Assembly (NCBI GenBank): GCA_008632985.1
Contig: QPGO01000086.1
Coordinates: 124,001 to 188,000 of the forward strand
Origin: Psammoneis japonica
Taxonomy: Eukaryota
DNA length: 64,000 nucleotides
Direction of reading: 5' to 3'
The notes below the pieces were generated by a model. That model made no database searches, was not told where the DNA came from, and saw only the letters and a program-made list of their open reading frames with translations. A program made the translations under genes and the position numbers. This document shows, piece after piece, positions 6,403 through 61,449 of the stretch; position 1 is the stretch's first letter; every line of letters begins with the position of its first letter.

Positions 6403-8237
<1,835 letters not shown>

Positions 8238-15123: not shown

Positions 15124-16356
15124 GTGTGTGACGGCAGGCTCATCAGGCAACCCAAGAAGCAGGATGAGTTGTTGCTGGCCACCCAGAAGCATCCCAACAA
15201 TGAGATTGTGTTTTGTCCATGGGGCTCAAAAGGAAGTGAGAAAAGCAGTCTTGACGTGCTCCAGCTCCAGGTGGGACCTCACACTGCTGAGCTGTGTGAC
15301 ATCAACAGTTTTTTGGATCATGCTGCATGTCACACATGCAGAAAGGTGCGTGACTTTTGTGAAAATGTGTGTCATTTTGCGGCACACGTGTTGGGCAATC
15401 CGTCCAACAACTTTTGACATTTTTTGTCACAGCACAATTCTACAATGTCTTAAGAATTGCATGGGGCAGGTGCATTTGCAAAAATGTCAAGTGGCAAGAG
15501 GCGCAATTGTGCCACAAACTTGGCCATTTGTTTGATGTTGAAGACAAACACATCCATCAATTAAATTCTTGCACTGCGGAGCTCACACGCAGAACTCTGT
15601 GGGCCCAATGTCATGTGGAGTCCCACCTGGGACTGGAGCCCGTCTCTTGTGCGACATGCCTCAATGGGTTGACCAGGTGCAATCGAAACTAAAATGTCAA
15701 AAAAGTCTGCCAACGATGCTTCAGCGGAGCTTGTGGAGGAAGATGTGTTTGCAGCATGTTGGGTTCAACCCATTGTGGTCATTTCCCTGGAGCCAAGATG
15801 CAATGGCAAGGTTTTGGATGCTGTTCTCACGATGTGTAAAATCCTGTCCTGCAAAAGCAGCTGGAAGATGTGCAGATTTTTGGCAAATCTGTCATGTTTG
15901 AGAGTGGCAATTGACTTGTCAATTCACGTGCTCGACCTCCGATGTGTTGGGGTCCACAGCAGCAATTTCTCCAACAAAGAGGCCCTGGATTACATGACTG
16001 AGTGGGTGCATTCTTTTTCCAACAAAAGGCACAGAAACCAAACAGCACGGCATGTTGTTGAGGTTTTTGATGGACATGTGCTGACACTTCAAAGGGCATG
16101 CATGCTTCTTTGGGAAGGAAAGCCTGGTGATGAGCAGGATCTCAATGCTCGAATGAAAAAAGCAAATGAACTGGAAATGGAGAAAGCTGCCAATGGTTGG
16201 ATGTTGGGTTCACTTGGCCCTTCCTGTGACACAGCAGCGGTTGAAGAGCTTGTTGCTGTGTTGTTGAAGGGACCTCAGAATGTTGAAGTGCCGCTGTCCC
16301 CAAGATGCGTGGGCTCTTCAACACTGGTGCAGGATGCCATCCTCTTGTTGCGCTGA
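15124..16356 (+). pseudogene. Degraded P-loop ATPase-like gene interrupted by a MITE
   Basis: Walker-A-like GSKGSEKSSL immediately before the MITE; the same frame resumes at 15649 and, after one TGA, joins the 15694-16356 ORF. Confidence 0.45.
15253..15644. mobile_element. MITE family A, heavily mutated copy
   Basis: TIRs GACGTGCTCCAG..AGGTGGGAC / GTCCCACCT..CTGGAGCCCGTC; TSD TCTT (15249-52, 15645-48); aligns with 55278-55667. Confidence 0.9.
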
Positions 16357-17469
16357 TCCATTTGAAACCAAAGTGTCCTTGAGGGGGAAAGCAATTGCAA
16401 CTGCACTTTCTAAGAAATCACACATGCTGGCTGGCAATGCCAGATTTAAGACCAGAAAATTGAGTGTCGCCCAACACGGGCATGGGCCCCTCTCTTGGCA
16501 AACAACAATTCATTGTTTCAAATTCTGCACTCATGCTCAAAGCCCCAGCAGCCAGGGTGTGTGCACTGCTGGAAGAAGATGGCCGGTCAATTTGCCAATC
16601 CCCAGTGCTTCAGGCGGGGCACATGCTGGGTGCTGCTGATGAGCTTTGCTCATGGTCTCATCCTGAAAGAGATGGGCCACAACACCACTGCTGCAGAGCA
16701 GTCGTCAGGAGAGCGGGAAGCTGTGCCCCCTCCCGTGCTTTTGCCATTGTGTTCTCCCTCTGTGCACATCTTGCTGCTGCCAAATCAGATCTCACACAGG
16801 CAGCAAAAACCAAATTCTTTCACAAAATCTGTGTTTGGTCAGTTTCTGCTTTGTGATTTTCAGCATGAGAAGGGAGAAGGAGGCTGCTGGGCACACTGTG
16901 GAGTTGAGACATGCTGCGCTTTGATGCATGATTTCCAACCTCCAGCAGCCCCAAACCATGACCTGACCACCACAACTTGCTGTTGCACACATGCTGCATG
17001 TGCAGCACTGTTAAAAATGAGAGTGAAATGACCAAAAGTTTGCAACAACAGCAGTGGCAAATCAACAACAGCCCACCAACAATGTCAGTCAATGGGCACA
17101 GTGACTTTTGAGAAACAAATTGATGCAGGCCCCAAAAAAGGAAGAGCTGAGTGACTCTGATCACTTCACTAAAAATCTGCACACATTTGAAACACAATGT
17201 TCACTGTGAATTGCTCTGCAGGTTCTTGACCCCACTTGTCAACAATGATCAAAATCAAAAACACAAGAGGGACAAAATGTTTGCCCATCACAGCAAAACA
17301 TGCTTCACCACAGCTTGCAAAAACACCTGCAATTGAGCATCAAGCTGAGACAATTTGGAAGCTGGTTTGCACACAAAAAATGGGAACCCCCCCCCCTCGC
17401 CACTTGATTTTGGGTGAGACTGTGCACAAAACTCCAAGAACGAATGACTCTTTGGGCTGTCACCCCACT

Positions 17470-18400
17470 GCTGCACACTTTGTCATTGACAGCTGTTGTG
17501 AGACACTCACAGCAACTTTGCAATTGACACCTTCTCTCATTTTTTTGTCTGTGTGTCATGTCATGGGCCAGCTTCTCCACTCCTCTGCTCTCACCACCCC
17601 CTGCACCAAGATCCTTGTGAAATGAGCAGTTCTCATTTGAATTTGCCACCCCATTTGATGGCAGCTCTGTTTGTGACCAGCAGCTCCATCATTGGGGTCA
17701 ATTTGGCAGCACTCTAAGAAGAAAGCCGCTTGCTTGCTTGCCAGAAATGGAGAAACACACCACCTCAGAAACAGAAAAATGCCATGGCTCAGGGGCTCAG
17801 AATCCTGGCTTTGCTGGCTCTGAGCATCACTGTGAAGAGAAAGAGTTTGTCAAGTCACCCATGATTCCTGATTTTCGCTGACATGCCAAAGCTGTGATGT
17901 GCTCATGAGTTCAAGGTGATGAAGGAGGCTGAATTGTGTGCAATTGTTGCTCCTCATGTGTGTTGTGCTCCTGAAGCTTCATCTAAAAAAGAAAACATTG
18001 TTCAGGAAAGGGCACCACAGAATGTTCTGGGAGGTGCAGTTGTGAAAGCTCTCCTCAGACCCAATGTGCTTTTTGGATGTTTTTGTCTGCACGGCACAGA
18101 GAGCGAGAGGTGTTTGACCCATGCTGTTTGAAGACTTGCAATGCCAGATGCTAGCATGGCATTGGTTGGTGGCACATTTTGAGCTGCAGGTCAGAGAGCA
18201 ATGGCACCAGCCACAGCAACAATTTGGAGAAAGAAATCAAGGTGTGCAGCCCTGCTTCCTTCAGCCAACGGGCACGCGATTGTGAGTCAGAAGCTGTGGG
18301 TGGCTGTGGCTCCCTGGCTGCTGTGCGCAGATCGCAAACCAGCTGCTGAAGATGTGATGGTTTTTGTTTGGATGGGTGTTGACTTCACTTGATTTGGTGC
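17470..18400 (+). pseudogene. Degraded duplicate of the proline dehydrogenase upstream region and 5' CDS
   Basis: Shares blocks with ~25145-25900, e.g. TTGACACCTTCTC, CAGAAATGGAGAAACAC, AGTTTGTCAAGTCACCCAT, AAGCTCTCCTCAGA, TTGAAGACTTGC. Confidence 0.85.
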
Positions 18401-18813
18401 CAGGTTGTGGTGACTTGTGACTCTGTCAATTTTCTCCAACACGTGTGACTGAAATCCAGCTTCGAACACCTGCCATGTGGGTGTGTGAGCAAACAGAAGG
18501 ACGCACGGTGTGTCACATTGTCGCGCGCGCGCTGCTTTGTGCCTTTTTGTTCCAGAGCAACACTGCAGCGACAACCATTGGAGGAAAACCTTTGTGTCAA
18601 ACAAAGGAAGTAAATGAGAATAGATGAGCAGACAAGAGAGCTTGTGGAAGAGATTGGAAGCGTTGATCTCTTAGGAGTAGAAGTGAACGTCGAGTGGAGC
18701 CTCGAAACATTCTCAATTATTTATTTCCCCGCTGATACAACAGCATTGTAGGAGTGCTGTGCGATCAACGGCAACAGCATCTCGTTTATTCTTTTCTTTT
18801 GACTACTATCGCC

Positions 18814-19902: not shown

Positions 19903-20730
19903 ATATTGTTTGTTGGAATAATGAATCAAGCAAGTCAAAATGAGCACTTGTATGCAACTCAGGGTGCATGCGCCTTGGATGTTGTGGCTCACGACAGCTA
20001 CAGGCAAGACCAAGGCTGAGCATATGTTCGTGTGCTCCATGCCGTGTTATCACCGGAACGTTTCCTTTGGTACGTTAGTGGTGAATGTCGCCGAATAATG
20101 GGAAGGCGCTCGGGGCTCGCTGATTGGTTGTGGAAGTCATTGAAGAGTGAAAACACAAACATTCATATATTTGCTCTTCTCCTTACTGGATATCAAGTTT
20201 AGTTATTCAATACTACCCCGAAGGACAAAGGGGAATTCTTGAAGGCTGTTTACAATTTTGCAGAAATTCTATTCGAGAAAGGACAGACCAGTAACCTTCC
20301 AATTGACCAAGTTGAATGGTAATGCCACGACTCCAAATACTCTACCGAAACAAGCTGATCACAAAGTCATAAGTTTCGTGAACCCATCGTTTGCAGACGT
20401 CGCTTTGAGAGAAAACCTGGCTGTTGCTGTCGTGCCGGATGATCCAAACTGCATGAGCATCAAATTCTAGTCGAAAGAGTCAACGTCAGGTAGACCGTCA
20501 AAGAAACTCAGACCCCGGAAATCTTTGTCCCGTGCTTCCGTGTAAATGTTGTTGCCACCAAATCGGATGTTACGTCAGCGACAACACATCCTTTTGTTAC
20601 ATCTGTGTTTGACGAGTTTCAGCGCTACTCTGTAGCTACTTAGGGTCCTATTTTGGAAAGGCTGTTTCCATTCCCGGTGTGGAATCGATCGACGCGGCTC
20701 CCCGGAATCATGTTGTACGTACCGTGTAGT

Positions 20731-20848
20731 CTCTATTAGCTCTAGCTCTCTACTACTAGAGTAGAGAGTAGCTACTAAGCTAGAGCTACTCTAGCTACTA
20801 CTAGAGCTAGCTAGTGGCTACTCTTAGAGTAGAGAGAGAGTAGAGAGT
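20731..20848. repeat. Low-complexity TAG/CTA/AGAG tract
   Basis: ...ctctagctctctactactagagtagagagtagctactaagctagagc...; similar tracts at 461-499 and 22855-22891. Confidence 0.85.
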
Positions 20849-20890
20849 CGTTGTTTCCGCCACCCACAACCCAAAACCGCGACCTAACCA

Positions 20891-22700
20891 TCCATGTGGA
20901 AGATGCACAAAAACAAGAGTACAAATTGAAGAAAAATGAAGAGTTGGAAGGCTCTCAAGTCCAACCTGGCATGTGGTGCAGTTTGAGAAAAAGAAGCAGA
21001 GCAACATTGACAAAATTGTGCTGATGCCCTCATCCTGTGGAGTGACAAATTTTGGTGGGTGTGGGGTCTCTCTTTCTTGCATCTGCTGTGGACTGACTGC
21101 AAAGACGCCAAGTGTCAAGCCTCTGAGAAAATGGAGAAATGCCACATTGTGCAGCTCTTGCAGCGAGTTTTCACAGATGATTTTTTGGCACATTTTTGGC
21201 ATGAAACAGGCAAAATGCTGGAACACATCTCCTCTCAGGACACTGCAGGGGAATCAGAGGAGCAACCCTCTTCACAATGGCAGCAGGCATTTCAATTTTA
21301 GAGGCACAACCAATTTTGTTGCTTTTGTTGCAGAAAATGTTTTCTCTGCATGCACTCGCAAGAGCAACGCACCATGCATTGTGTGCCAAATCGGGAGATG
21401 GGTGCTGAGCAGTTTTGTGCAAAATTGCTGTTGTTCTTCACAATTGCAAGAGCTTTTTCTGAGTGGCTTCCTGTTTTCCACATTCTCATTGACTCAAGAA
21501 GGTTCATCATCAGAGAGGGCAACCATGGCAAGGCTTGAGAAGTGCACCCATGTGCCTCTTGATTTATTCCCAGCTTGCTTGGTTGAAACAAGCATCTGGG
21601 CAGGCTGCAAACAAAACTTCCTTGGACAGATCATCTTGAAAGTCCACATGCTCCCATCTGGTGTGTTCTTTTTTTTCCTCTTGAGAGGTTGCGCATGGAC
21701 AACTGTGGTGCAGGTTGGAGGTGACTGTGCCAGAGATTTTGAGTGTGTTCCCTCCAGCACCTTCTTAAAAATGCAGTCATTGACAGCACTCTGACAATGG
21801 TTGGTGGCAACAGGCTCGGGAGCATGAGCTGCATTGCCCCCAGGGACACATTGCTTTCCTTCATCCCAGCATCACCTGGCCCAGATGAAATCACGCACTT
21901 CTTGTTGACTTTCTCTTGACATCAACTCCAGCCACCCTTGAGAATTGTTCAAAAGTGTGACAGAATCTCACCCCACATGCTGGATCATCCTCAAATCAAT
22001 GGTTTTTCCTCTGCTGAGCTCAGCAAAGCAATTTTTAACCACGCTGATGCCGTTGTTCAAAGTCTTTGTGAACAAACAGTGGATGCCCTTGGATTGGTGG
22101 CAATCATTGCAAGAAATCATCTTTGAGGATGATTGAGATCACTCCATGCTTTGATGTGTGGTTGTCTCTGGTGGATCTTTCAATTTTTCACTGAGCAGCA
22201 GCTGCAGCACGCATGTCTCGATGTGCAAGAAAACACACCTCGTCGACAACGAGCAGACAAGACATCACCCACTCTTTGCATTTTGCATCTGGTGCAACAC
22301 TCTTCTTAAAAGCACATGCACTGCCATGAGTCATTTCACTGTTGACTGCAATGGCTGCTGACCCTGCAACAGCAGCGATGACCACAGCGTGCTTCTTCAA
22401 AAGGCACACCACCAAGCTCCTTGTGCAGAGCTTCTTTGCACAAGCAATGGCGCCATCAATGACAGTGCTCTTGCCAGACCCTCCAGCAGCACAAGTGAGA
22501 AAACAAAGAGTGGCTGGCCTCCACTCTTGGCCCCACTGATTCTTTCCAAATCTCTCTTCACACCACCCATTTTTCTCCTTTTTTCCCTTCAAAGATTGAC
22601 AAACGCACGACAGTGTTCCCATCATGGAAGCATCCATTAATTTGTCGTTGCTCAGTGTTTGTAAAGACAACAAGACACATCCATCCAGCAAAGCTTTCAA
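20891..22700 (-). mobile_element. Hypermutated PIF1-helicase (Helitron-like) remnant
   Basis: FLTCAAGGSGKST (Walker A), AVAGSAAIAV, LLVVDEVCF (Walker B), DFLQ*LPPI near 22100 (GDFxQLPP motif); TpA/CpG depleted. Confidence 0.7.
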
Positions 22701-23384
22701 TTGCTATGAAACAGGATTTGTTGTTGAGAGAGGGTCAATTCGCCCCTTCATCAAAACCCGATTTATTGTCACGATAGTGTTTTGAACTCAGCAGCATGAC
22801 CCACTCGACTCAAATTTTTTGGTACAGCATTTTTTAGCTCCTGCGGCCCCTGCTCTCTAGCTAGCTCTCTAGAGTAGCTAGAGAGTAGTAGACTTCGGCC
22901 CCCCCGCTAGAGACAGAAATACACAAGATACGAGCATTGCTGGTCTCCGACTCTTTAAACCAATGTCTTGTGAGAATGTAAAATAGGCATGTGTTGTTGA
23001 AAGTGCGAAGGACGAATTTTCGTGATTGATCTAACTAACGCGACCCTCAAGTTGGGCCCTCTACTCTCTAGAGAGAGTAGTGTAATGTGTGTTCCTTGTT
23101 GAAAACGGGGTTTTGTGATTTACACGTCAAATCACGGGTTGGGCAGTAAAGCTGATGGTACTACGCGGCTATGCTAATGGTCCTTTGTCGAGCACACGCA
23201 TAAAGAACAGAGGTTTTTTAGTTTATTATTCAGTGCGGAGCAAATTTAAGGGTCCGGCCATGTACGTGTTTCCCTCATCATGCGAATAGACTAAGGCATT
23301 GACTGTTATGTTTGCAGTTTTTTCCCTCTCGTGCTGGACCTTAATTGAACTTCAGTGCTTCAGAGTGCCTTTTCATGTGGTTCC

Positions 23385-24908: not shown

Positions 24909-25253
24909 TGTTCTTTGTCAAGTGTCGCTTTTTGTTGTTCTTTGTCGCTTTTTGCAACTCTCGTTATCACGATTACGAAATCTGAATTATGAGAAGCCGA
25001 CGAGTGTCGAGTGTCAACGAAGATAGGAAGCGCATCGCATCAGTGAGCAGAATAAATACTGGACTATGTATCCGCCACCCACAACCCAAAACCGCGACCT
25101 AACCACGACTACTGTCGCTCGCGCAACGAGCAAAATGCAACACGTCGTCGTTGACAGGTGGTGACACACGACTTCACACTTGACACCTTCTCGTTGTTTC
25201 TTGTCTATCAGTAACACAACTTCGATAGTCCTCTCCAATCACTGTACTCCAAG

Positions 25254-27115
25254 ATGTTGGTGAGACGAGTTGCTCAATCAAATTTGCGACCCCTTTTGGT
25301 GGCAGCGCAGTTTACTGCCAGCGGTTCTGGGATCAATTCGGCATGCCAAGGGCAGCCTTCTCAGAAATGGAGAAACACGTCTCAGAAATGGAAAAGCACT
25401 GCGGCTCCGGGGATTCAGAATCCCGCCTTTACAGATTCCAGATATCAACGTGAAGAGAAAAAGTTTGTCAAGTCACCCATTCCTGATTTCACTGACGCCA
25501 GAGTTGCTCATGAATCCAAGACGACGACGGAACTTATTCGTGCAATTGTCGTCCTCCGCCTCTGTCGCATTAAAGCCTTGTCTGAAGAAGGCGAAGTCAT
25601 TTTGGGAAAAGCACGGAGCATTCTGGGGGATACAATCACGGAAGCTCTCCTCAGAGCAACGTTCTTTGGGCATTTTTGTGGAGGCGAACAGAAGAAGGTT
25701 TTCGACCCGTGATTGAAGACTTGCGACGTCACGGCATTGGTGGTATTTTGGATTATGCGGCAGAGAGCGATGATACCAGTCATAGTGATAATGTGGAGAA
25801 AAAATTGAGGTAGACAGCCCCACTTCCTTTAATCAACCCGCACGGGTATACGATTACGAGTCGGAAGCGGTATGCGATTCTCATGTACGCGTGTTTGAGT
25901 CTTGTATCAAGGCTGTGCAGAATGTTACACCCGAAGGCTTTGCTGCACTCAAGGTATCAGCTCTTGGTAATCCGCTCTTGCTAGAACGAATGTCAACGGC
26001 CATTACTGAATCGAAAGAACTGTTCGCAAAGTTTGATACCAACAAAAACTCTGTCTTGACGAGGGAAGAATTCGAAGAAGGATATAGGTATGTTTGTTGT
26101 GATCTCTTGAAAAATACGTGTGGCTTGAATGATGATACAGAATATATCATTACCTACCCATGCCCATCATTTTCTTCCATAATCTTGTAGGCTCTTTTTC
26201 AAGGACGGCGACGAAAAGATCCCAGGTTTGATAGAAAGGCTCGACCCTGATCACACCGGCAAAGTGGATTACATTGCTTGGTCCAAGTTGTTAACACCCA
26301 AGGATCTTCCAGAGCTTACCGTCAGTTGCCGAGAGACGGGTCCACTCGCTTTGGCGACGCCGTCGGACGAGGAATTGGAGTTGATGGAGGCCATGCACGC
26401 CCGTGCCCATTCCTTGGCCAAGCTGGCGTTTGATTGTAAAACGAGGCTCTTGATTGACGCCGAACACGTTCGTTATCAACCAGCTATAGACAATTTAGCC
26501 TTGGAGCTTCAGCGTGAGTACAATGACACCACCAAGACAGACGTTCCCATTATTTTCAACACGTACCAATGCTATCTCAAGGACGTGGCGGATCGATTAA
26601 AGATTGATGTGGAGCAATCAGAACGGAATGGATATCACTTTGCTGCCAAACTAGTTCGTGGAGCTTACCACGAGAGGGAAAATGCTCTCGCAAAGAAACG
26701 TGGAGTTCCGTCACCCATTCATGGTTCGATCGAGGACACGCACAAGTCTTATAACGACATGGTTGAGTTCTTGTTGAAGCACTCGACTGAAACCGACCAG
26801 AGGGTGGAGATTATGTGTGCGACGCACAACCAGGAGAGTATCGAAAAGGCCATTGATGTTATGAATAATCTTGGAATTGACCGATCCGCTCCTACGATGC
26901 ATTTTGCGCAATTGTATGGCATGGCGGATCATTTGTCGTACAATCTCGGAAAGAACGACCTGAGGGTGTACAAGTATGTTCCTTATGGCAAGGTTTTCGA
27001 AGTGATGCCATATCTCGTGAGGAGAGCTCAAGAGAATAGCTCATTGATGGGAAATGCAGCCATGGAACTGTCTTTATTGAGCGATGAATTGAAAAGGAGA
27101 ATCAAACCGTTCTGA
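25254..27115 (+). CDS. PRODH: Mitochondrial proline dehydrogenase with EF-hand; intron 26088-26190; two apparent 1-nt deletions (~25688, ~25800)
   Basis: FFGHFCGGE, GGILDYAAE, AALKVSALG, LLIDAE, FNTYQCYL, AKLVRGAY, ATHNQES, FAQLYGM, YKYVPYG, YLVRRAQEN. Confidence 0.92.
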
Positions 27116-31308: not shown

Positions 31309-31370
31309 AGAGAAGAATAGACAATTCACATGTCTACTGAAATGAATTGAAACTAAACAATGTTATACCT

Positions 31371-38304: not shown

Positions 38305-39439
38305 CCTCTGGGATGGAGTGAGCGATCAAACCATGGTGCGGTGGTCGTTAGGCTACCGCCAGCCCTCAAAAATGATTTCATTCACTCGCTACTGCACGGA
38401 AAAGTCTGACATCGACTCCTCACTTGTTGGATAAGCACCTTGCTCTTCGCGTTTACAATGCCGATGCACGGTACCCTGGTACTGTACCTCTCATGGAATC
38501 TGCAGCTGCAGCTCGGATATGTGTTTTGTCGACAATATTTTTCTTCATTGAGCTTCACCCTTCAACCTTTCGCATCATGAAAAAGTACCGACCGTGATAC
38601 TTGAGACATATAGATGTGTGGGGCGACGAGCCAACACTCAACACAGCCCCGATTGCCGATGACAAGCAAGAGGCATTGTGGCACTGATGGAACTACCCGT
38701 ATTTGATCATATTACAGGTGCCAAAGATGGCTGTGGCAGTGAATAGGAAGCAACTAAACTTCTCACACCCCACAAATTTCTGACGTCCTCTAAAAAGCAT
38801 CTAGACATACAAAGAAATTCTCGGGCCTCGGTGTCATGAGCTTCTTCGAGGTGCACCAACAGCATCTCTCATGTTCAATCCCAGCTGAGACTGCGTGCCT
38901 CAAGCTCACGGCGGAGATCTGGAACGCACAGTTCCTTATGTCCACCATGGCTTTTTACACCCGTCGGTATTGAGGCGGAAGTATGACCGCCTATCTGCTT
39001 CCCGGAAAATACTACGGTTGGAGCGAGCTCGACACCGCACTTGCTTGGAGGTGCGACGTTTCTCGCGTATCTCTTGCGTTGCCTTTGAAAGTCAACGCAT
39101 GGCGCGAAGACTGCCTCGCACGAGGGTCGCTACTGGCCATGCTCTCTTGTTGCTTTATATTCAAAAAGGCTTTTGACTTCTTCCCTCGGCGGGCGAGCGA
39201 CTATTGTTGGTTCTTATGAAAGTTTAAAAGCGACAAATTTGGGGACGATCCGCACATAGTATTTAACGTAATGCATGAGCAGCGCTGCGAGGAGTAGGCC
39301 TGCCTGCGGCTGATACGTCGTTCCTGTCGTAGCCACAAACCATTCACCCTTGTCATTTCATCTGTTGTCGTACAGTACTTTCGTTTCATGCGAGGATCAG
39401 GTAGATCCAACCACTCTACGTACCAGACGTTCCGTAGTT

Positions 39440-39748
39440 ATCCACAATCTTGCGACTAGTCAAGACTGTCCGATCTCGTGCTTCTTCTTTCCTTACAAAC
39501 ATAGCTGCACAGCTCGGGGTTTTGGCAGAGAACGTAAAATACCTTGCTTGGGGAAAAGTATCGACGGGAAGGGTCAAGAAAGTGTAGTTCGTAATCCACA
39601 ATCTTGCGACTAGTCAAGACTGTCCGAACTCGTGCTTCTTCTTTCCTTACAAACATAGCTGCACAGCTCGGGGTTTTGGCAGAGAACGTAAAATACCTTG
39701 CTTGGGGCAAAGTATCGACGGGAAGGATCAAGAAAGTGTAGCTCATAA
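39440..39748. repeat. 154-bp tandem duplication of the 3' end of the LRR gene
   Basis: 39440-39593 is near-identical to 39594-39748. Confidence 0.92.
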
Positions 39749-42625: not shown

Positions 42626-45600
42626 TCAATTCAATTCAATCCTAACAATTACCCGACCCTCGTCAGAGCCGGTGCCTATACTAAGCTTTAGTCACGCCTG
42701 AGAGTCCTTTCAATCCACAACCATGGATAGGTTCAGAGCGTCATATAATCTTTTTTCCGATACCAAATAAACACACAATACCGCGCTTGATAGTTGTGGG
42801 GCGGTTTTGACACCGTACAACTGATTCACTCAGGTTCATGCCTGTAACAAGTAGAATCAATCGGTGTCGAGTTCATCGTACGCAGCTATTTTTGCCACCC
42901 TTACTGCGTAGAGCCATTGTCGCTTGTAGTCAATGTCCTCTGATTGTACAGATTCCATTGACTGTAAAAACCAGCGGGCGAGATGATTGGGAGTGACGAT
43001 AGTCTGGGAGTGTCGGTGATACCAATGAAACTCCGCTTCGACTTGATCATCAAGAATTTCGTTTTCTGCTATGAGAGTTTCGGAGACATTTGATTCTGCA
43101 GCACGCATGCGATGTCGCCACATGTCCCATGCGACATTCCAGAATTGTCTTATCAGGCCACTAACCCATCGTAAACCTGTGTTTCGACGGTCTAAAAAGT
43201 TGTAGTAATCCTGTTGAACAGCTGCCCAGTTTGACGAAATGAAGCCCCTTATCATTGCATCGTCCCCGAGAGCGTCCTGCGCAGAAAAGGCTAGATCGAC
43301 AACTGGGTTGTCAAATTCCAATCGAGAAGAATCGTCGTCGTACCAGAGGTGTAGTTTTCCCATGATCCCTCGTCGTAAATCTGGTTGAGTGTGCTGAGTG
43401 CGTAGCCACTTCTCTAACTCCACGATTTTCTTATCCCACAGCACTCTGGCTGATCGGTGACGACATCTGACAACATGATTTGCACTCAGTTCTGGTTCCC
43501 CGCATCTGGGGCATGCAGCGCTGTGGAGAATGCGCCATCGTTCTAAGTTCCTGCCGATCGGAACAAAGCCAGAGGACCACTTTGGTTGCCAAAGTCTGCG
43601 GAAGATTGGGACTCTCTTCATTGCCTTGCCCAACGATTCCCAGTCGATGTCGGCGTGTGCTGGTGTAGATTCCAGCTTCTTCTCCCAGTGGTGTGTCGCT
43701 GCTGGACCGTGGACATGATCGAGCATGGCGTCTTTGTCCCAGGACGTAAGTGTTTTGCCACCCATCTGAATTGTCCAGACAGTCTGCTCCTTCAGCTCGA
43801 AGTGTCGTGTCGTCGGACGAGAATTGAGAGTTTCCCAGCATGCCTTCGCGAGCAAATCCATTTCCACATTGAGCTGTTCCATGTGGGTGAGTTCATGCAA
43901 GGGCAGATCTTTATCTCCACGTGCCTTGACTTTCTCCGGAGCAAAGACTGTGGATGACGCTGCCATCATTCAATGCATCGGTTGAATCAGATCACAGTTC
44001 GTTTGCCGAGGATCATCACAGTCATTGTAAAAGCACGTTCGAAGCACCAGGAGACAATCGCACCCAATTGTTGTCTTGCCATGTCGGATGTGGCACTTGA
44101 CCTCAAGATGAGTGGCGCAGCGTACAATTCCGCACAGTCCTCCCAGTTCTCCGCGACAAGCCGTCATGTCCTCTGCATGACCTGGTGTTTGATTGACCCC
44201 TCTGTGTTGATTGGGGTGACCTGCCTCTGGAAGTAGGATCACAGCCGCAGCAGCAAGTGCGTCTTTAAAGGATCCGTCGGTGACAGCGATCGCGGTTCCG
44301 TCTCGAATTCCTGCCAACAAGGGACCAATGGGTGGTTCAATGTTGTGAGGAACACAAGACCATTCAAAGAATTCCACTTCAGCCGTGGCGACAATCAGCT
44401 TTGTCGTTCCGGTTGGCGTGACACACGAGCCTTTGACAATCACTCTTGTGGGTGAGCTGCCGTCCGGCAAGGAAGACACTTGTCCTGCAAGCTGACAGAA
44501 TTTTCTTCGCCGCTGTCTCCGTTGTGGAGAGACAGAGTAGAGCCTCACACGGTCATCCTGTTCCAATGGAAACAGACGATCGGTGGCTTCGCAATGTCGC
44601 CACGGTGTGAGGTGGCTGTGGGGAAACCATTCTCCCAGGTGTCTGCGCAGGCGAGATCCATCATTTCGGCCTGCCGCAAGGAAGCACATTGTCATTGCCT
44701 CTTCCCACAACTCCCAGCTTCTCTTTGAGGGACATCCTGCTCTTGGCCAAACACATGGAGACTGGCATTGTTCTTGGCCGTGAAGGCATTGCGGCAGCAC
44801 CCGAACCCCGTCTCCTGAGACAAGGTCCAACAGGGCAATGGCTTGTAGCCACATTCGGCAAACATTCAATCGGCGAAGGTGAGCTCCTCTGCAGCCATTC
44901 TCTACAAAGGATTGCATTAAAAAGGAGTCCTGTTCTCATTGAGGGAGAAGACCTGTGGCTGGTGACGTTGGTCGAATGGAATGGGAGTCGCAAAATTCCC
45001 ACAGTGACGCAAGCCAAGACGGTGTCGCGAGAACACTCAGCTGCTTGCAACTGAGATGAAAAATCTGTCCTGGATGTCCAAGTTCCAGCATCACATTTTC
45101 CCACACTGTTTCTAGTTCCTTTCCTGTCATGGAGGGCGAGTCACTCTCCTGCAGACAGACTTCCAGTTTCAAGAGTCCTTGGACTGCACACAGTTCCGGG
45201 ATGCCAACTCCGTTGCACTTTGTCGGTGCAAACAGAATTTTCCGGGGAAAGGACCGAGGGCACCCAATCGCTGGGAGTGCTGCTTGCAACAATGGTTTCT
45301 CAATCATCTCGCAATCTTTCTTGGTTGTGGATGCAGCAGCCAACGGATGTTCCAGCGATTTCACGATTCCCCCGGTTAGCAAGATCCATGCTTCTGTCCT
45401 GTTGAGATGCCCGCAACGAATTTGGTCTGCCCACTTTAGAGTTTTTGCCCGAAAAGCCGCCACCTGTCCTTCCGTGTTGCCATCCATTGCCACCCATGCG
45501 CCCAGTGTTTCTTCTGACTCCCACGGTTCAAGACGTCGGACAGTCTGCCGGACGCCTTTGTGATCTCGAACAGTGATTTCTGCAGGAGCATCCTCCATTG

Positions 45601-48600
45601 TCTGATGTTGCCACCGTTCATTTTCCCATTTGAAGCTTGCTAGAGACCAGTGGCTTTTAAGAGGAACAAGAGCGCTGCCCGTTGCACGTGTGCCGCCTTC
45701 CCAGCAGTCAGCCACACTCTGCATGCCCGTGGACACCTCTTGGCATGTGGCATCAAAATCTGGCGAGTGGCAAGGCAGGTCCGTGTCGTCCACAAAGGTG
45801 CAGCATGCACAATGCACGGCGTTCTTTGAGATTGGGCTGCGTGCTCGAATTCCAAAGCCTTCTTCGCGAAGCATGTTGATTGCGGGAACACTTGCTGCCA
45901 ACCAAATTCCTGGTGCTGCTCCATGCCCCTGAAAAATGCCTTGGAATGGAACTTCTAACGCTGCACAAGGAGTTTCGGAGTCCCCGTGCGCCGTGCGAAC
46001 ACAGTGCTGGATTTGACTTGGCGTTGCTGTCATCATGAATGCTTCGTCCTCTCCAGTGCGATGGACAGTCGCATCAAATCGTGATCGAGAATCCCTTGTT
46101 CCACCACTTGATTGTGCTTTTTGACGATTTTCGGGTCGTCAAGTTTGCCTGCAAGCCGATCCAGTTTCAGCTCAGCTGGTGGTGGGGGAGAGCACCCAAG
46201 TGCACTTTGTTTGCATGCATCAATCCAAATGATCCTGTGATCCGACGAATGGTCAAATTCCCCGAAACCAGACACACCTGCCTTTTCCATCTCGAGAGTG
46301 GGAGAGACAAAAATTGCATCAATCGGGATCTCGGATTGGTTCTTGTCACATGTGGCGACTGGTGACAGTCTTGGGTGGGCTTCTTGGAATGCATCGACAA
46401 GATTTGACGAGCGAGCCCATGTCTGCATCGATGCGTTTCGGACGTTTTTGTTAAAATCCCCTCCCAGAACAATGAGATCTCCCTCCTCCTGCCAGTTTCG
46501 GATCTCTTCCGACAGATCTTCCAACAGTGCTTGGCGGGGGCATCGTAAATCCTTCTTCGTTAGAAGGTGCGTCTGATGCTGTGAATAAACACGGCCGGGA
46601 TTCCCTTGCCTGTCCGTGACTGGGCGACAAGCTGTTGTCATCCTTGTGTGAATTCCGCCTTTCCCTCGGAGCCTTGTCCATGTCCAACGTCCAAGTCCGC
46701 TCTTGTCTTCTCCTTGTGAGATCAGATGATGACGTAATTCCGCCGGAAGAATCTGTCCTGCGCCTTCAAACATGCGTTTCCCTTGTGTTGAATGGCGCGT
46801 GTTGACCGCCACTGAAGAATGTCCCCTGCGAAGTGAAAGCCACCAGCTGCGCCACTGGCAATGCTTGGGCATGCGTTTGAGATTAAGATTCATTTCGATG
46901 AGTCCCATTGCATCGACGTTGTTATCTTGAATCCATTTCTCAATGTCATGATGCTTGTTGTCTTTGCTTGGGTGAGCTGGGAGTCCGCTGATGTTGTGGA
47001 ACGCAAAGCAGTGTGTTCGTTTTTGCTTCACTGCAATGGAGTCTCCCCAGCACTCATCACTCTGTCGACTGTCACTTTCCAAATTTACATCCTCATTTGG
47101 CGGTCGTTGACGGTTCCGCCGAGGATGGTTTGAACTAAGTGTGTCCTCCGGTGCTCTCGGCCTGAGCACCGGTTTGGTTCGTATCCTGCGAACTTTCGTT
47201 CGCTGAATCGGCCGGAACCACAATGCCGACGGCACGGAGCAGTTCCTTCAACTCAAAGAGCTCTTGCTGAGTCTGGGCCAGCTTTTCTTTTGTGGAGGTG
47301 GCAGTGACCATAGAAGCAGCATCTGCCACTTCTTTGGAGGGGTCGCAGATGCGCTCTCTCGTCAGATTGATTCCTGATTTGAAGCGAACCGATTTCCCGT
47401 CCTTCGATTGCCCAGCGGTAGATTTCTCTTCTGATGTTCCATCGTTGGATTCGTCTACACTGTTGGCTTTGGTGTGCTGAGTGTCGTCGTCTTTGTTGCG
47501 CATGCACCCTGCCGAAGAAATGTCTTCAGCGGTTTCAAGGCGTTCAGCAGCCTTTTCAAGGGGCGCGCTCTTTTTCGGAGATGGTTTGCTTTGAGAACTC
47601 TGACGTTTGGAAGCATTGTTTGTCGAGATGTTCGTTTTCCAGTCCTCTTCCAGCCCCCATGGATCATCTTGGATGATCTTCGAGATTGTTGCACTTTCAG
47701 AGGACGTGGTCTTGCCTGTCTCGGCGTCATAGACCGTGGTGCGACAGGCGGCAACACCTGATGATTTGAACCACATGGCAGCTTCTTGACCGAAGATGTG
47801 CAAGGTCTCCGGGATGACTCTGTTCAACTCTGCCATCACTTCAGCAAAGTTTTTCTTTGGGAACGTAACCACGTGATCTGATGGACGGTTCCACTTAGTG
47901 TCGACATGGTGGATGAGGGGAGTGAACTTTTTCTTTTCTGCCGTTGGATCCTGAACGCGTTTGCGCATTAAAAAGTGACGCAGGGACCATTTTTTCCCAT
48001 TCTCGTCGATGATGAGTTCATCGAGGTCTTTGAAGAAGCCAAAATCGACTTGGCCGAGTGCTTGCTCCGTGAAGCAGTGTTGGCGTTGAGCGAGCTCTGA
48101 GATGTTCTTCCTCACATCGTCTGGTGCGCACTGCATCATGGTTGACGTGTGGCATGGAACGAATTGCATGGTGAGTCCGAGACACCTTTTCTTTGCGCCT
48201 GCTCGCCAGAGCCTTTCTGCTGCTGTCCTTGCTTCATGAGCGGAGTGTTCCTCTACATCGATGTGTGGCACCTGAGGATTTTTCTTCGGGTCTGATGGGT
48301 CGCATTTCGGGCACTTGCCGTCTGGTCCTGCAATGGAGCGCCATTGGATTCCTAATTTTTCGGGATGATCTTCAAAACCCAATCTTGCACAAATCGCGTC
48401 GTGCAGCGTGTTCTCGGACATTGTTTTGGAGCTGCCATGTGACCATCCAATGCATTCAACTCGGCATGATTGGCATGGAATGGGGTTCCGTGCGACACTG
48501 AAGCTGCCATTTTCGACATCTTCAAACACACCTTGCAGAGCTTTGCCAAACTCTGGGAGTGGTGCATCGGCATCTCCTGCTGCTAGGAACCGAATCTTGC

Positions 48601-49813
48601 AGCAAGTCGTGTGTTCATCGTTGACTCTTGGATTGAAGCAATCGGTTCCAAGCATGACGCTGAACTTCATCCTTTCTTTCGCAGAGCCTTCTGGAAGGTC
48701 GTCTGCCGTTTTCCATTCACCGCATTCATCACTTGGTTCTTCATCCCAGGTCCCGATGCACACGTTTTTGCCTGATGCCTCTTGAGTGATCTCGAGAGCC
48801 TGTCCCAAAATTTGCTGAGCCTGTTGAAAGGGTTTTTTGGCAGGTTGAAGAGTTGGCCACGCGTTGCATCTGATTTCGTTCCAGATCGGGTCCACTTCTT
48901 CAGTTTCCACGAAGTGTTCGTCGTCCAATTCCTCATCGGATTCTTCCATTTCGACTTCACAATCTTCATCGTCTTCGTCTTCGTTTTCTTTCTTTTTGTT
49001 CGTAGAGTCGTGCTTGTCGTCGTCGGATGAGCATTTTTCTGGAGGGGTTTCTTCCTCTTCGTCTTCTTTTCCTTCTTCTTCATCATCATCATTGCCATCA
49101 TTGTTGTCCTCTTCCTCTGTCGTTGGTGGATCCGCAACTGGGAAATCTGCGTCGGAGTCTTGATCATTTGGATCGGCGTCAAAAGAGGAATCCGCGTGAT
49201 TCTTGCCAACGAGATTTTCCATGTCATCTTGTTCTTCATCATGGGATGTGTTGTGCGTTTCCATTGATTCAGACAAGACTGTCTGAGAGACTTCTGGGTC
49301 AGCCAGTTCGGGGTCGTTGTAATCCTCCAACGGAGCGCAGGTGTTCTTTGTTGATGGGGTTTGTAGATCGGCAGAAACCACATGGTCTTTGTCGGTGACA
49401 GACAATGAGGGAGGGCCTTGTTTTGGATTGTCTTCATGCTGTTGATCTTTGGATCTGCTGCGTGTATGACGGGCTAGAGGTGAACATTGGTAAGGAGTTA
49501 CCGAGCCGGGAGCGATCTTGGCGGTGGTTGCTGTTGTCCATTCACCATCGTTGGGGGAGGTTTCCTTGGTGCGTGAGTTTTGCGTAGAATTTGTACGAGG
49601 CGTTGCCTTCGGATCGGTCGTTTTGCTGTTTGTTTTGTTTGAGTCAGAGGAAGTAGTTTCTGGTGGTTTTGCTTTGCCATTAACTCCTTTACCCTTTTTC
49701 TTATGAGCACCTTTGCGGGGAGAAGTGTTTTGTTTTTCCGCAGAGGTGAAGCGTTTACGACTTGGCATGGTGCGAATTTTTTAGCTTGTTGGTTTGTAAG
49801 TACGTGCGAGTTA
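42626..49813 (-). mobile_element. Non-LTR retrotransposon 1 (APE-RT-RNase H, Ambal-like), inactive: ORF1 49768-47135, ORF2 pieces 47235-42857
   Basis: 18-bp TSD TGCTGCATTGGCGAAAAT (42608-25, 49814-31); (ATTGA)3 3' tail; GGDFN and SDHR (APE), FVDDTD (RT), TDGSFKD..RGELGG (RNase H), CPRCG..HVVRC zinc knuckle. Confidence 0.93.
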
Positions 49814-49861
49814 TGCTGCATTGGCGAAAATACAAAATACCCACGCGTTCAATACTTCGTC

Positions 49862-51057: not shown

Positions 51058-52539
51058 CTACAGTTGAGCTTCAAGAGACTTCAACGCATGTTTGTACCGA
51101 TCATCGTAGGCTTTTCTTTCTTGTTCGTCTTGTATCGGAATGAGTTCGTTGACTAGACTGCTTCCGTCTATTGTCATGATGGAATCTGCGACCTTTTCTT
51201 GAAAGCCAAACATCTTGCCTACCCTGAACATATATTCAAGGATTTTCATCTGAAGTTTCCACGCCCAAGAAGTATTGCAAATTTCACGGCTTGCATCCAT
51301 TAGTTCATTGGCAGTCTTCAATCTCTGTCTCTCGTAGTCTGCAACTACAGACTCCGCATCTTGACCGTGTCGCATCATAGCTTCCGCCAGACAAAGTGCG
51401 TCCACCATGGCCTGGCTACTCCCGAGTCCAGCATACGGTGTAAACGGATGAGCGGCATCTGTTGTGTTTCACGACAAGTACAAGGCAGCGTTAGAATCTT
51501 GGTATTGGCACAAAGAAGGTTCATCGGCGCTGTTGAAACTTACCTCCGACTAGAACGACTTTGCCTTTGTGATAAGTATCCAAAGGTTCACGATCGCAAC
51601 ACATTACAACCTGCATATCCTCTTCCTTTGTACGATCAATCAGGGCTTCGATTGTCGGAATACCATCCTTACACCTGTCTCGAGAAACATCCAGCCAACC
51701 GTCAAAACCGGGTGGTACATTGGGAAGCTTTTGATGGGGTTTGCCATCAAGAATAAAGTTGGCGTACCAAATGGTAGCAGATGGGTTGACGACTGCATAC
51801 TGGACAAAGTCTGCTTCCATTCCCATAATTCCGTAACTCTTTCCAGTCACTCCCGGTGGTTTGGGAAAGTCTTTGGCTTCTTCCGGAGACAGGGGTGGCA
51901 AAACCGCATAACACGCCACGATCCCGTCGCTCCGAAGTCCTTTGCCCTCTCCAAAGGCATGCTTGCGAACTCGGGAATGCACTCCGTCTGCGGCAACCAC
52001 CAAGTCAGCTTGAAGGATCTCTTTTTTACGAGAACCGTCATTACCCCAGGAAGGACCTTCCACCTGGACCGTTCCTTTTTCGTGATTTACTAGTTGAGCG
52101 TTGGTCTCAAAGACGATGCATTCGGGATCCAACTTTTCGACGGTTTCGCAAAGTGACTGGAGTAGCGCCGCTCTATAGTAATGTTGAACATGGGCATTCC
52201 CAGACTTCTAGATTTCCACTCCAAGTCGTTAATCAGAGGGACTTTGTTGTTTGAGCCCATGAATAGGGCGCACTTGTCGTAGGCAACGGCCGAATCAAAG
52301 ATTGGTTGTGCGGCAGCTCCGTTGGCAATTCTCAGCAAGGCTTGAATGCCACTGGAGGCCATGTCGTAGAAGGATTTGGTATCCGCCAACAAAGATTCCC
52401 TCGAACGGCGTTCCAAAACGCGGCACTTGAAACCATTGTCCAACAAATGAGCGGACATGGCTAGACCAGCCGGTCCACCACCAACAATCAGGATAGTGGG
52501 GGATGATTGGCGACGCTGGAGATTGGAAGCAGTGCACAT
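51058..52539 (-). CDS. FAD-dependent monooxygenase; intron 51543-51459; frameshift near 52175
   Basis: ILIVGGGPAGL, DLVVAADGVHSRVR, VVLVG|DAAHPFTPYAGLG. Confidence 0.85.
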
Positions 52540-52920
52540 GGGCTAGAGATTTCTCGAGTTGAAGATATCGTCAAGTTGTGAGACGAAATTTTGAGGTAAG
52601 AGATGTTCCTGGAAAAAGATCAGTGTTCATAGAGTGTTAAGTGTCGTTCCCGACGACCATTCATGAGCAAAGAGCGACAAGCGATGATGATGCGTTTGTT
52701 GGTCCGCGCGGTATCGATCCTATCGTAGTCCTGCTGGCTGCGCCGCTGCGCCGCTGCGCCGCTGTCCTCATCCAGTGCCAGAATCGGGGAGAAGACCCAT
52801 TACCTATTGAACCACGTACGCACGTTGAACGTGCTGTAAGGGTTGGTTGTTGTTTTTCTTCGGTCACCGGCCTGTCTCATTCTTTCAAGATCGACAAAGA
52901 CAAGCCGCTGTCGTTAGTGT

Positions 52921-55900
52921 AAACAAAACAAAACCAAACTTCTATATTTTAAGTGCTGCTACGCTTCCACCCTGCAACTCCGGCAACAAGCTAACCCACA
53001 CTCCCAGCACACAATTGGTGCGGCAGGAGCAAACAGCAATCAGCCGAGATCGGCATCACCCGAGGGTGACGCCGCGCCAAAGCAACTTGCAATGGTTCTG
53101 GTGCCTCGTGCAGCCAATCGTTTGGCTTCCCGCATGCTCGATTTAAAGACTGGTTTGAACATTGCCAGCCAGCTGCGAATCCGATGAGTTGAATGCGTCA
53201 AATGATCTTCCACCGAATCCAACAAGAGCGCCTTGTCTCTCGCAAGGCAATCATCCGTGCGAGAATAAATCGCTTTAACCTCTGCTTCCGCGTCTCTCCT
53301 TTGAGAGGACTTTCTAGTTTCCGAATCGTGTCCGTGCACAGCGTCATTGTGAGCACCCCACAGGTCCCACCACTGCTCCCATGTAAAGTTCCCAATGGTT
53401 GCCGCCCAATCCAAACGTTTCTGTTGGTCCGAAAGGGTCCGACAAATGCCGCTCGACGTAAGACAGGAGGTTTGTGTCACACTCCATTGGACCGAAAAAC
53501 GACCATCAAACAACTGACGCCAACCCATTTCTCCTTGGGAATGGAAAACGGAGATGACGCTGTGATGAAATTGCTCAGAGTAAAGAAGCTCATCTCGAAA
53601 CCATGCTTCAACAGCCGACATGATCAAGTCTCGTAAGGAGGGAGACGTGTGAACATCATTGCACTTCTTGCGCAGGCCTTGTAAAAATTTTCTGCGCCAG
53701 GCCTCATTGTGAGGACAACGGAGAATGTGGTCTCTGTCTTCCATGGGGTCCTGACAGTGTGCACAACAGTCCGGACGTGTCGGATTGCATCTGTGCACGA
53801 TTTTGTCAGTGGGTGGAAGATCTTGAACCAGCTTGACAGCACCAACTTTTCGACGAATGTTCCGTGACATCAGTTTCGCATGAACGTCCCAATCGATCGA
53901 CGCGCAGACTTCGTCGGACCAACCATGTTTCTCTTTCATGCAGTCGACCAGCGCGGGACTCGATGCCTGATGTCGCAGGACCGGCTTGCATTTGGACGAG
54001 ACAGTGGCTCCTTGGAGGATCAGATTTGCTCGACAGTGAGGCATGCGGGGGGCTTCAAGAGCATCGCCAGAAAATTGGCCTTGGAATTGTCCTGCTGGTC
54101 TGTCAGCCCGCGTGTTCAACTTCGCCGCCAAGGATGAAGACTCCACAGGAAGAGTGTCATCTTGGTGACCTTTCACCCAATGAATCTCTACGACAGGACA
54201 CTGCAGTTCATCAGTGCTGACCTCGGACACTTGTCGTAGGGAGTGAAAAATTTCATTGACAATGTCCCAGTCTGGTGAGAGGGTGTCAGCAATGTGATGC
54301 CGCCATTGAAAGTCATCGGCTCCTTGAGCATCATCTGCTTCGGGAGGAGAAGGAATCACCTGGAAATTCGAGATGTTGCGAATGAGTGAAGAATTGTCGC
54401 AATGCAAGTCAGCGCCTCTTAAAGATGAAGAACAACATTCTGTCAATCGGGCCAGGAAACGGAGAAAGGACAGCATGCCGCATGCTTCAGCTCGGCAAGA
54501 AGATGGGCAAAAACCAAAAACCGGACCTGCACAATCCACAAGAGGTGTCCCATCGATTGTGATCGTCCAACCAAAGGCACCTCAAAATTGAAGGACCGAG
54601 CCGTCGCCACCCGCTGACGCTTGGTGGGTCGCAAAGATGTCGGCGATTTCAAATGTTGACCGGTGCAGGGACGATTCCCAACAAGATAGAGACCGCAGCA
54701 TAGAGAGAAAATCGTTGGGGACGGGAGGCAAAGTTGGCAAGAAGACTGGAGTGCCAGAAGACCGAATTCGCCAATGACCATTTCTGGTGGCATCCACAAG
54801 CACCGGGGATGCCGCAGGGGAAAGATCTGGGACAGTTTCCAAGGCCGCAATCGAGTCAGCATGACCGTGTTTCACCGGAAACATTTGAAATCCAGCATCC
54901 GAATGGATGCACAAGTGATCTTCGGAGGGTTCGTGGCATGCCACGTGTGACATTCGCATTTCCGTAGCCGGCATGAGCCATTGACCTGGGGGATCTCGGA
55001 GATCAAAAGAACCGTCCTTGCAAAATGAGGAACAAGCTCTTCGCCACTGTTTCCAAGCTCGAGCAGACGGGCGTTGTTGTTCAACGGGGTTCAGAGTGCT
55101 GCGGCTGCTGAAAAGGGACGATCGGCCGTCGACTTTAAAGGAGTCAAGCGAGAGGCCATCTGGAAGGGTGGTGTCCGACAGTGTCAGTGCGTTAAGACAC
55201 AACCGACAGCAGTTGACCCACCTGATCTCCCGATCACTGAAGGCGCCCGATTCAAGTGCGACGTCCACAACACATTGGACGCGTTCCAGGTCTAGGTGGG
55301 ACCTCGCACTACTGAACTGTGACATCGACAGTTTTTTGAGTCTCGTCGTATGTCGCGCACGTAGATTTCTACGTGATTTTTTCGACATTTTGTGTCATTT
55401 TACGGCACACTTGTTGAGCGATCCGTCCAACAACTTTTGACATTTTTTGTTACAGCGCGATTCTACAATGTCTTAAGAATCGCATGGGGCAGGCGAAGTT
55501 GCAAAAACGTCGAGTGGTAAGAGGCATAATTGCACCACAAACTTGGCCGTTTATTTGATGTTGAAGACAAACATGTCCATTGATGAAATTCTCGCACTGC
55601 GGAGCTCGCACGTAGAATTCTACGGGCCCAATGTCACACGGAGTCCCACCTGGGGCTGGAACGCGTCATTGGTCGTCATCTCGCTGTAGCGGGAGGACGC
55701 CAGGCTCGTCACAGTCAATGGAAGCATCAATCCTTGCCAAGAAAGATCGGAGAGACACAAACCAGCGTGATTCTGAATGAGGCAACTTGGCATGAACGTC
55801 TTTTAGAAAACCAACTCCCGCTCCGATCTGCAGCTGAATCCATGACACTGCAATGCAAGACAGAGCTTGAGGTTGTCCTGTCCCGTGCCAGTGACGAAGA

Positions 55901-61352: not shown

Positions 61353-61449
61353 GCTGTCGTTAGCGCAGTTTAATCGCCATAAGACCGCGACGCAGGACAC
61401 CTCCGCCGTCTTTGTTCTATCGCAGAAAGAATTCGACACGGCACGTGGC

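Follow-up and report, generated by a model that had tools for sequence, protein, structure and literature searches.

What process leaves two copies of one small transposable element differing mainly at TA and CG dinucleotides, and which of the two copies has changed? The question is raised by a stretch of 64,000 nucleotides from the diatom Psammoneis japonica (assembly GCA_008632985.1, contig QPGO01000086.1, forward-strand positions 124,001 to 188,000), hereafter the 64-kb window, in which one copy of a miniature inverted-repeat transposable element (MITE) begins at position 15,253 (the 15k copy) and another at position 55,278 (the 55k copy). We consider it probable that the 15k copy was converted in situ, together with the block of DNA in which it lies, by transition processes acting at TpA and at CpG on both strands. 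The evidence comes from the differences between the two copies, from the state of the element family at the differing sites, and from the distribution of TA and CG along the window.

The two copies and their element family

Judged by their structure, the two sequences are copies of a high-copy, non-coding DNA transposon with terminal inverted repeats (TIRs), that is, a MITE of about 390 bp with a 4-bp target-site duplication (TSD) in a diatom nuclear genome. We assign this class because the element has TIRs, has TSDs that differ between the copies, is small and occurs in high copy at many sites. The TIRs of both copies begin with GACG, and the duplicated 4 bp read TCTT around one copy and ATTG around the other (Table 1). 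An earlier sequence-only reading of the window had located the pair and quoted ten strings as examples of the differences; the two elements were verified at these places with their TIRs and TSDs, and all ten strings are present in the two copies. A sensitive self-BLAST of the window found no third copy. General open reading frame (ORF) scans gave no match over either copy, no separate coding test having been made, and no autonomous partner of the element turned up, although no dedicated search for one was made. Scans of metagenomes returned no match for a 24-base central stretch of the element and none for a 24-base TIR-proximal pattern.

Aligned over 392 columns, 2 of them gaps, the copies differ by 67 substitutions, comprising 52 transitions and 15 transversions. 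At 21 of these substitutions CG in the 55k copy faces TG (11) or CA (10) in the 15k copy, and at 12 TA in the 55k copy faces TG (5) or CA (7), so that both strands are affected, as had been supposed. A single substitution is of the reverse type, with CG in the 15k copy and CA in the 55k copy. The 18 other transitions include 8 that make up four double sites, at which TG in one copy faces CA in the other. The earlier statement that most differences fall at TA or CG therefore holds narrowly, for 34 of the 67 substitutions directly and for 42 when the double sites are counted, and it did not stress that changes of the CG type (21) exceed those of the TA type (12). Seen from the 55k copy, 12 of its 14 TA and 21 of its 29 CG dinucleotides read TG or CA in the 15k copy. 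The overall content is 3 TA, 9 CG, 47 TG and 47 CA in the 15k copy and 14 TA, 29 CG, 29 TG and 30 CA in the 55k copy.

When positions are classed by the dinucleotide of the 55k copy, transitions are found at 12 of 28 TA positions (43%) and 21 of 58 CG positions (36%), as against 9 of 119 TG/CA positions and 10 of 185 other positions (5–8% for these two classes; Fisher's exact test against both combined, p = 5.6e-7 for TA and p = 8.9e-9 for CG). The A:T-to-G:C transitions of the pair were found to be restricted to TpA, with TpG and CpA as products, and outside TA the A:T-to-G:C direction is not significantly favoured (6 versus 1, p = 0.125; 9 versus 10), which argues against biased gene conversion. 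The CG changes are nearly symmetric across the strands, both in this pair (11 TG and 10 CA) and in a second repeat pair described below (17 TG and 10 CA). Two places in the 15k copy show changes of another form: at 55526-55527 / 15503-15504, CATA has become CGCA, with an A-to-G change at CAT instead of TA, and at 55637-55639 / 15614-15616, CACACGG stands against CATGTGG, a CA-to-TG double change.

Which of the two copies has changed can be asked of the element's own family. We used contigs from four public runs (X1–X4) of one sample, matched to 55250-55700 at 80% likeness; the resulting values are depth-weighted marginal frequencies, not individual copies, and the figures cover the rows listed in the resulting table, which has 21 further rows. 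In the deep run X1, 3554 contig pieces matched the MITE. Its summed word depth is 63,000–715,000 within the element and 31–85 in the flanks, which is a depth contrast and not a copy number, and the family is clearly very abundant. The loose ends of X1 contigs at 55662-55668 consist of many different sequences (35–46% agreement), which confirms the right boundary of the element and points to many insertion sites. Single X1 contigs skip 77–217 bases within the element (joints 55336-55554, 55446-55549, 55448-55641 and 55479-55557), which suggests internally deleted derivatives of the family. The tiny runs X2–X4 cover the element and not its flanks, and presumably assemble only the most abundant variant of the MITE.

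Of the 12 TA-type sites, 11 are TA in this abundant variant and one, 55311, is TG; of the 21 CG-type sites, 20 are CG and one, 55494, is mixed with 45–68% T. Because of this agreement with the 55k copy at the differing sites, the family comparison indicates that the 15k copy is the derived one of the pair. The X1 depth-weighted majority equals the 55k letter at 9 of the 12 TA-type and 20 of the 21 CG-type sites. The direction from TA and CG to TG and CA, which the sequence-only reading had inferred from regional depletion, is thus supported by the abundant family variant, and the opposite outcome that it had named as a refutation, a family consensus of TG or CA, was found at one site, or at three by the X1 majorities, and not at the rest. 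The polarity is firmest between 55499 and 55650: the differences of the variant from the 55k copy are fully itemised there (records 16 and 24, 8 other letters each; 8 rows), so that all 5 TA-type and all 7 CG-type pair differences in this interval can be firmly assigned, on the sequence comparison, as derived in the 15k copy. Moreover, three of the four TG-versus-CA double sites (55533/34, 55574/75 and 55581/82) are TA in the abundant variant. Since TG and CA can be linked only through TA or CG, at least one TA-erasing step is implied at each of these three sites, whatever the root. Among the 33 transition rows listed for X1, 31 lie in pyrimidine-purine (YR) dinucleotides, against about 52% expected (p = 2e-7).

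The 55k copy may itself have lost about nine TAs and one CG relative to the abundant variant. The variant has TA where the 55k copy has CA at 55406, 55533, 55568, 55572 and 55595, TA where it has TG at 55486, 55575, 55582 and 55599, and CG where it has CA at 55484. Out of about 23 TAs in the variant, the 55k copy retains 13 and the 15k copy 3. If these losses are real, each copy would carry the mutational regime of its host block, the 55k copy having lost TA and hardly any CG, as in block D described below, and the 15k copy both, as in block A. Within its TA-poor surroundings the 55k copy forms a TA island: 14 TAs fall within its 390 bp and 85 within the 10,611 bp that flank it (Fisher's exact test, p = 9.6e-6). 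The likeliest reason for its light conversion would be that it was inserted later.

Blocks of erasure, flanking bases and a second repeat pair

We delimited four blocks, A to D, from profiles of dinucleotide observed/expected ratios (o/e) along the window (Table 1). Block A, which contains the 15k copy, would have about 362 TAs if it were as rich in them as normal DNA; it has 21, of which 3 lie in the 15k copy itself. Its edges are sharp, the last dense TA being at 10202 and the next dense run starting at 18611, and the dinucleotide AT is near normal within it (o/e 0.80–0.93). Across the window, TA erasure was found to be confined to delimited regions of foreign or mobile DNA in which TA falls to o/e 0.04–0.16 outside the MITE, with neighbouring genes spared (0.63 in normal DNA). 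Endonuclease/exonuclease/phosphatase domains are found in blocks C and D, and the ORFs resembling long interspersed nuclear elements (LINE-like ORFs) of these blocks have 0.2–0.3% Tyr among their residues, as against 1.7–3.5% in three host gene ORFs.

Two regimes of erasure can be distinguished, with loss of TA and CG in blocks A and B and loss of TA only in blocks C and D; among the blocks of the window, none has lost CG alone. Because C and D have lost only TA and A and B have lost both, the erasure of TA and that of CG are separable, with the CG loss in A and B probably resulting from a second process. On a logarithmic scale the loss of TA is about 1.6 times that of CG in block A and about 8 times that of CG in block D, which argues against one clock or one enzyme for both dinucleotides.

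Table 1. Positions of the blocks, element copies and repeats in the 64-kb window
Feature	Position	Strand	Remarks
Block A	10203-18610		8.4 kb; 21 TA, o/e 0.04; 102 CG, o/e 0.20; TG and CA o/e 1.83; contains the 15k copy
Block B	about 21000-22500		TA o/e 0.05; CG o/e 0.21
Block C	about 43400-49500	minus (LINE-like ORFs)	TA o/e 0.14; CG o/e 0.81
Block D	about 53000-64000 (to window end)		hosts the 55k copy; TA o/e 0.13-0.16 outside the MITE; CG o/e 0.85-0.89
LINE-like ORF in block D	55666-59346	minus	
Normal DNA	32.8 kb in total		TA o/e 0.63; CG o/e 1.00; host gene ORFs
MITE, 15k copy	15253-15644		392 bp; TIR 31 nt, 84% complementarity; heavily converted
Left TSD of 15k copy (TCTT)	15249-15252		right TCTT at 15645-15648
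MITE, 55k copy	55278-55667		390 bp; TIR 25 nt, 88% complementarity; lightly converted
Left TSD of 55k copy (ATTG)	55274-55277		right ATTG at 55668-55671
Second repeat, block A copy	17606-18297		paralogous to 25249-25871
Second repeat, unconverted paralogue	25249-25871		normal DNA, just upstream of the proline dehydrogenase ORF (26183-27115)

A second repeat pair, unrelated to the MITE and of about 65% identity, has one member in block A and the other in normal DNA (the 25k copy). Its 18 aligned TAs in the 25k copy read TG (10), CA (7) or CG (1) in the block A copy, none being kept. Among its 37 CGs, 27 read TG (17) or CA (10) in the block A copy; 2 are kept and 35 lost. Two unrelated repeats and the DNA between them thus share one signature and one set of edges, both strands are affected, and the MITE has the structure of a DNA transposon. 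For these reasons we read the conversion of the 15k copy as having occurred in place on DNA, neither before insertion nor by way of an edited RNA. One member is spared in each of the two repeat pairs, so repetition alone does not trigger the process, and location, not repetition as such, seems to decide whether a copy is converted.

The TAs that survive in blocks A–D are not a random sample of contexts. TTAA accounts for 31 of the 159 survivors, as against 3.0% of the 1414 TAs of normal DNA (6.4-fold), and CTAA/TTAG for 30 of the 159, as against 6.7% (2.8-fold); by contrast, ATAT is absent (0 of 159 versus 7.9%) and ATAC/GTAT occurs three times (3 of 159 versus 14.5%). By these counts the TA process prefers an adenine followed by a pyrimidine, that is 5'-TAY-3' (equivalent to RTA on the other strand, with Y for pyrimidine and R for purine), and spares YTAR. 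The family data are in line with this flank rule, in that the RTA/TAY orientation is found for 22 of the 26 TA-TG or TA-CA polymorphisms listed, as against 30 of 68 monomorphic candidate sites (p = 4.3e-4). The rule also explains why most polymorphic sites show a single product. Where it predicts one product, that product is found at 9 of 10 sites in the MITE and 6 of 7 in the second repeat (pooled p = 0.002), and 10 of the 12 TA changes in the MITE pair follow it.

A proposed process and its alternatives

Starting from what the sequence comparisons establish, namely that the differences are context-specific, polarised at most sites and block-wide in extent, that both strands are acted on at the DNA level and that a flank rule holds, we propose the following hypothetical scheme, in which (i) the 15k copy would have been converted where it is located, together with the surrounding 8.4-kb block; (ii) one process would turn TpA into TpG or CpA through A-to-G changes that may fall on either strand; and (iii) another process, active only in a subset of blocks, would turn CpG into TpG or CpA. 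As to the chemistry, the enzyme, the targeting to chromatin and a role in defence, we infer that the TA process could be an enzymatic deamination of adenine to hypoxanthine, which is read as G, carried out by a polynucleotide deaminase whose targets would be blocks of silenced chromatin rich in transposons, as part of the defence of the genome. To our knowledge, no natural enzyme system has been established for targeted A-to-G changes in eukaryotic genomic DNA. The CG process, in turn, would be the deamination of methylated CpG in the subset of blocks. Methylated CpG in silenced transposons decays to TG and CA; here, likewise, the two products of CG are about equally frequent (TG to CA 11:10 and 17:10), and the change is limited to some of the transposon-rich blocks. 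Such decay would account only for the CG half of the signature, methylation itself being presumed.

At the level of sequence, the signature matches a very recently described kind of process, the TpA-restricted hypermutation of integrated DNA of nucleocytoplasmic large DNA viruses (NCLDV) and virophages in Bigelowiella natans (Mettrop et al., bioRxiv 10.64898/2026.01.13.699255), and the TA process proposed here may be of the same kind as the one reported for that integrated viral DNA. According to the preprint, 230 of 231 mutations in hypermutable regions of mutation-accumulation lines were A-to-G or T-to-C, all at TpA, reverse-transcriptase and DDE domains were over-represented among coding sequences low in TpA, and an ADAT2-like deaminase was put forward by the authors. 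The two cases share the exclusive targeting of TpA, with TpG and CpA as products on both strands, the confinement to foreign or mobile DNA, and a depletion of TpA accompanied by an enrichment of CpA and TpG. They differ in the host, which is a diatom (stramenopile) here and a chlorarachniophyte there, and in the extent of erasure, which is near saturation here (o/e 0.04–0.16), compared with a Rho of 0.45 for their NCLDV region. The visible targets here are a MITE and LINE-like elements, a flank rule is seen (TAY hit, YTAR spared), and CpG is also erased in blocks A and B (o/e 0.20–0.21), although not in C and D (0.81–0.89), whereas CpG loss is not reported in the available sections of the preprint. 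Their evidence consists of de novo mutations in mutation-accumulation lines; ours is comparative only. Full-text literature searches found no description of TpA erasure in a diatom and no diatom MITE paper matching this element, and the only report of a TpA-specific hypermutator that they found was this preprint (10.64898/2026.01.13.699255).

Several observations weigh against in situ conversion as we propose it, or against the counts on which it is based. At 55311, which lies in one of the quoted examples (cactactga), the string is present in the window as stated, but the family has TG there (X1 89% of depth, X2 and X4 100%), so that either the TA of the 55k copy is derived or most copies have been converted. 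The X1 majority also equals the 15k letter, CA, at 55518 (56%) and 55527 (73%), unlike X2–X4. Within the MITE pair, 2 of the 12 TA changes break the flank rule, and the CA-to-TG double change at 55637/38 requires two steps. The abundant variant has TA at nine sites that are not TA in the 55k copy; at six of them both window copies share the same CA or TG, and subfamily ancestry or a gain of TA in the master copy of the variant could fit this shared state equally well; the split of six same to three different is also compatible with independent hits having two outcomes (p = 0.25). Records 9 and 25 each carry one difference that is not itemised, so that one or two counts could shift, and all family evidence comes from one sample, possibly the source of the window assembly.

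The sites at 55311, 55518 and 55527 also speak for an opposite direction of change. In repeat-induced point mutation (RIP) of Neurospora and other ascomycetes, C-to-T changes at CpA create TpA, and both copies of a duplicate are mutated. A process of that direction, with the 15k copy near ancestral and the 55k copy having gained TA by C-to-T at CpA, would be in keeping with TG in the family (89% in X1) against TA in the 55k copy at the first of these sites, with the CA majorities of X1 at the other two, and with TA in 9–44% of family depth at several sites that are CA in both copies. It is largely refuted by the abundant variant, which has TA at 11 of 12 sites; it also leaves the 21 CG-versus-TG/CA differences unexplained, requires a TA o/e of 0.04 in the 15k flank as an implausible ancestral state, and does not accommodate the three-state sites, which need TA as their hub. 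RIP, moreover, yields an excess of TA, not a depletion. It is a functional analogue of the present case, with which it shares a dense degradation of transposon DNA by dinucleotide-specific transitions, on both strands and in delimited regions. Direction and chemistry are the opposite: TpA is destroyed here and TG/CA enriched (o/e 1.83 in block A), no CpA-derived excess of TpA was found, and duplicates are not both mutated, one copy of each repeat pair being spared (the 55k MITE and the 25k repeat) with its partner in block A saturated. We give a RIP-like direction very little credence. Ordinary neutral decay, combined with the decay of methylated CpG and with a paucity of TA that is compositional or due to GC-biased gene conversion, would be in keeping with the commonplace CpG decay of methylated transposons and with the under-representation of TA even in normal DNA (o/e 0.63). 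It is contradicted by the context specificity, since within the same 390 bp TA positions change at 43% and non-YR positions at 5%, A:T-to-G:C changes outside TA are not in significant excess (6 versus 1, p = 0.125; 9 versus 10), and AT has an o/e of 0.80–0.93 in block A, and we regard it as highly improbable.

Editing at the RNA level would place the adenine changes in transposon transcripts, through adenosine-to-inosine conversion by an ADAR-like enzyme and subsequent reverse transcription. ADAR (A-to-I) and APOBEC (C-to-U) enzymes have RNA or single-stranded cDNA as their substrate and leave marks on one strand of retro-copies. Such hyperediting resembles the present case in being a transition hypermutation of selfish elements with a nearest-neighbour preference; the preference of ADARs for a 5' U, as stated in the preprint (10.64898/2026.01.13.699255), resembles the TA motif, and LINE-like retroelements do occur in blocks C and D. 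The MITE contradicts this explanation, given that the converted element has the TIRs and TSD of a DNA transposon, that both strands are affected (5 TG, 7 CA), and that the conversion is uniform across 8.4 kb of flanking DNA and also covers a second, unrelated repeat; an element structured as a DNA transposon and its non-repeat flanks are marked in situ on both strands, unlike retro-copies, and RNA editing is in our view extremely unlikely. An artefact of assembly or base calling at modified bases, by which TA and CG would be miscalled as TG or CA, might be suspected because the sequencing platform of the assembly and of X1–X4 is not on record and because the window contains one N. Yet in the TA-poor DNA on either side of the 55k copy the 31-mer contigs of X1 (depth 31–85) match the window, no rows of other letters being listed there, 54% of the words sampled from 54900-56100 occur in X1, the same variation among TA, TG and CA recurs in thousands of family pieces, the blocks have sharp edges and the products obey a strand-specific flank rule, so that such an artefact is hardly credible. 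A further explanation replaces the two processes by a single one of dual specificity, for example a deaminase that acts on both A and C. Blocks A and B have lost both dinucleotides with coincident edges, no block has lost CG only, and ADAT2-type enzymes reported to deaminate A and C are cited in the preprint. However, blocks C and D (about 17 kb) have lost 75–80% of their TAs with CG o/e still at 0.81–0.89, the 55k copy shows nine candidate changes at TA and no more than one or two at CG, the ratio of log losses of TA and CG is about 1.6 in A and about 8 in D, and among the listed family rows 3 are C-to-T at CpG. We consider a single dual-specificity process unlikely, and retain separate TA and CG processes acting in place on the blocks.

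Beyond dinucleotide statistics, the MITE pair adds changes that are polarised against the element's own family, evidence for action on DNA in situ, and the indication that the process is tied to the host block, not to the repeat, with TA and CG erasure separate. A very high-copy family that is polymorphic at TA sites would permit a genome-wide measure of the dose, flank specificity and timing of the process, and could serve, in a growable and transformable diatom, to assay in a simple way any deaminases or chromatin factors that come into question. We tentatively put forward, as a real possibility to which we do not yet commit ourselves, that diatoms have a DNA adenine mutator that is targeted to chromatin blocks, acts at 5'-TAY-3' on both strands of transposon-rich domains, turning TpA into TpG or CpA, independently of repeat sensing, and is in some domains accompanied by CpG deamination; this mutator would probably be a deaminase, and the MITE family would serve as a built-in reporter of the regime and dose of each domain. 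If this is true and common to Stramenopiles and Rhizaria, it would represent an ancient, previously unrecognised pathway of genome defence through A-to-G editing of DNA.

Neighbouring genes and minor features

The normal DNA of the window contains ORFs for tubulin cofactor D, beta-tubulin, proline dehydrogenase and an FAD-binding-domain protein. The beta-tubulin gene is a single ORF (6960-8237), whose best full-length named matches, at 88–90% identity, are from Fistulifera, Nitzschia, Odontella and Pseudo-nitzschia. Other repeats in the window show no TA- or CG-specific differences. They are a 349-bp direct repeat (1-349 / 1220-1568, 93%) upstream of the tubulin cofactor D gene, a 154-bp tandem duplication (39437-39744, 97%) and a 39-bp near-identical match (20852-20890 / 25067-25105, 97%).

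In block A, none of the 33 ORFs of at least 90 aa matched Pfam. Across the 37 ORFs submitted, the sole match is an ORF at the edge of block B (22188-22703, minus strand; AAA_19, E = 1.9e-5), with a weak helicase-type domain (AAA_19/AAA_30), and possibly a relic of a mobile element that carried a helicase. At the other end of the window, an open frame of 896 aa (61312-63999, plus strand) runs off the window end in TA-poor DNA with a GC content of 0.56–0.62 and has no Pfam match. Many overlapping long frames lie on both strands around it because the stops TAA and TAG have been lost.

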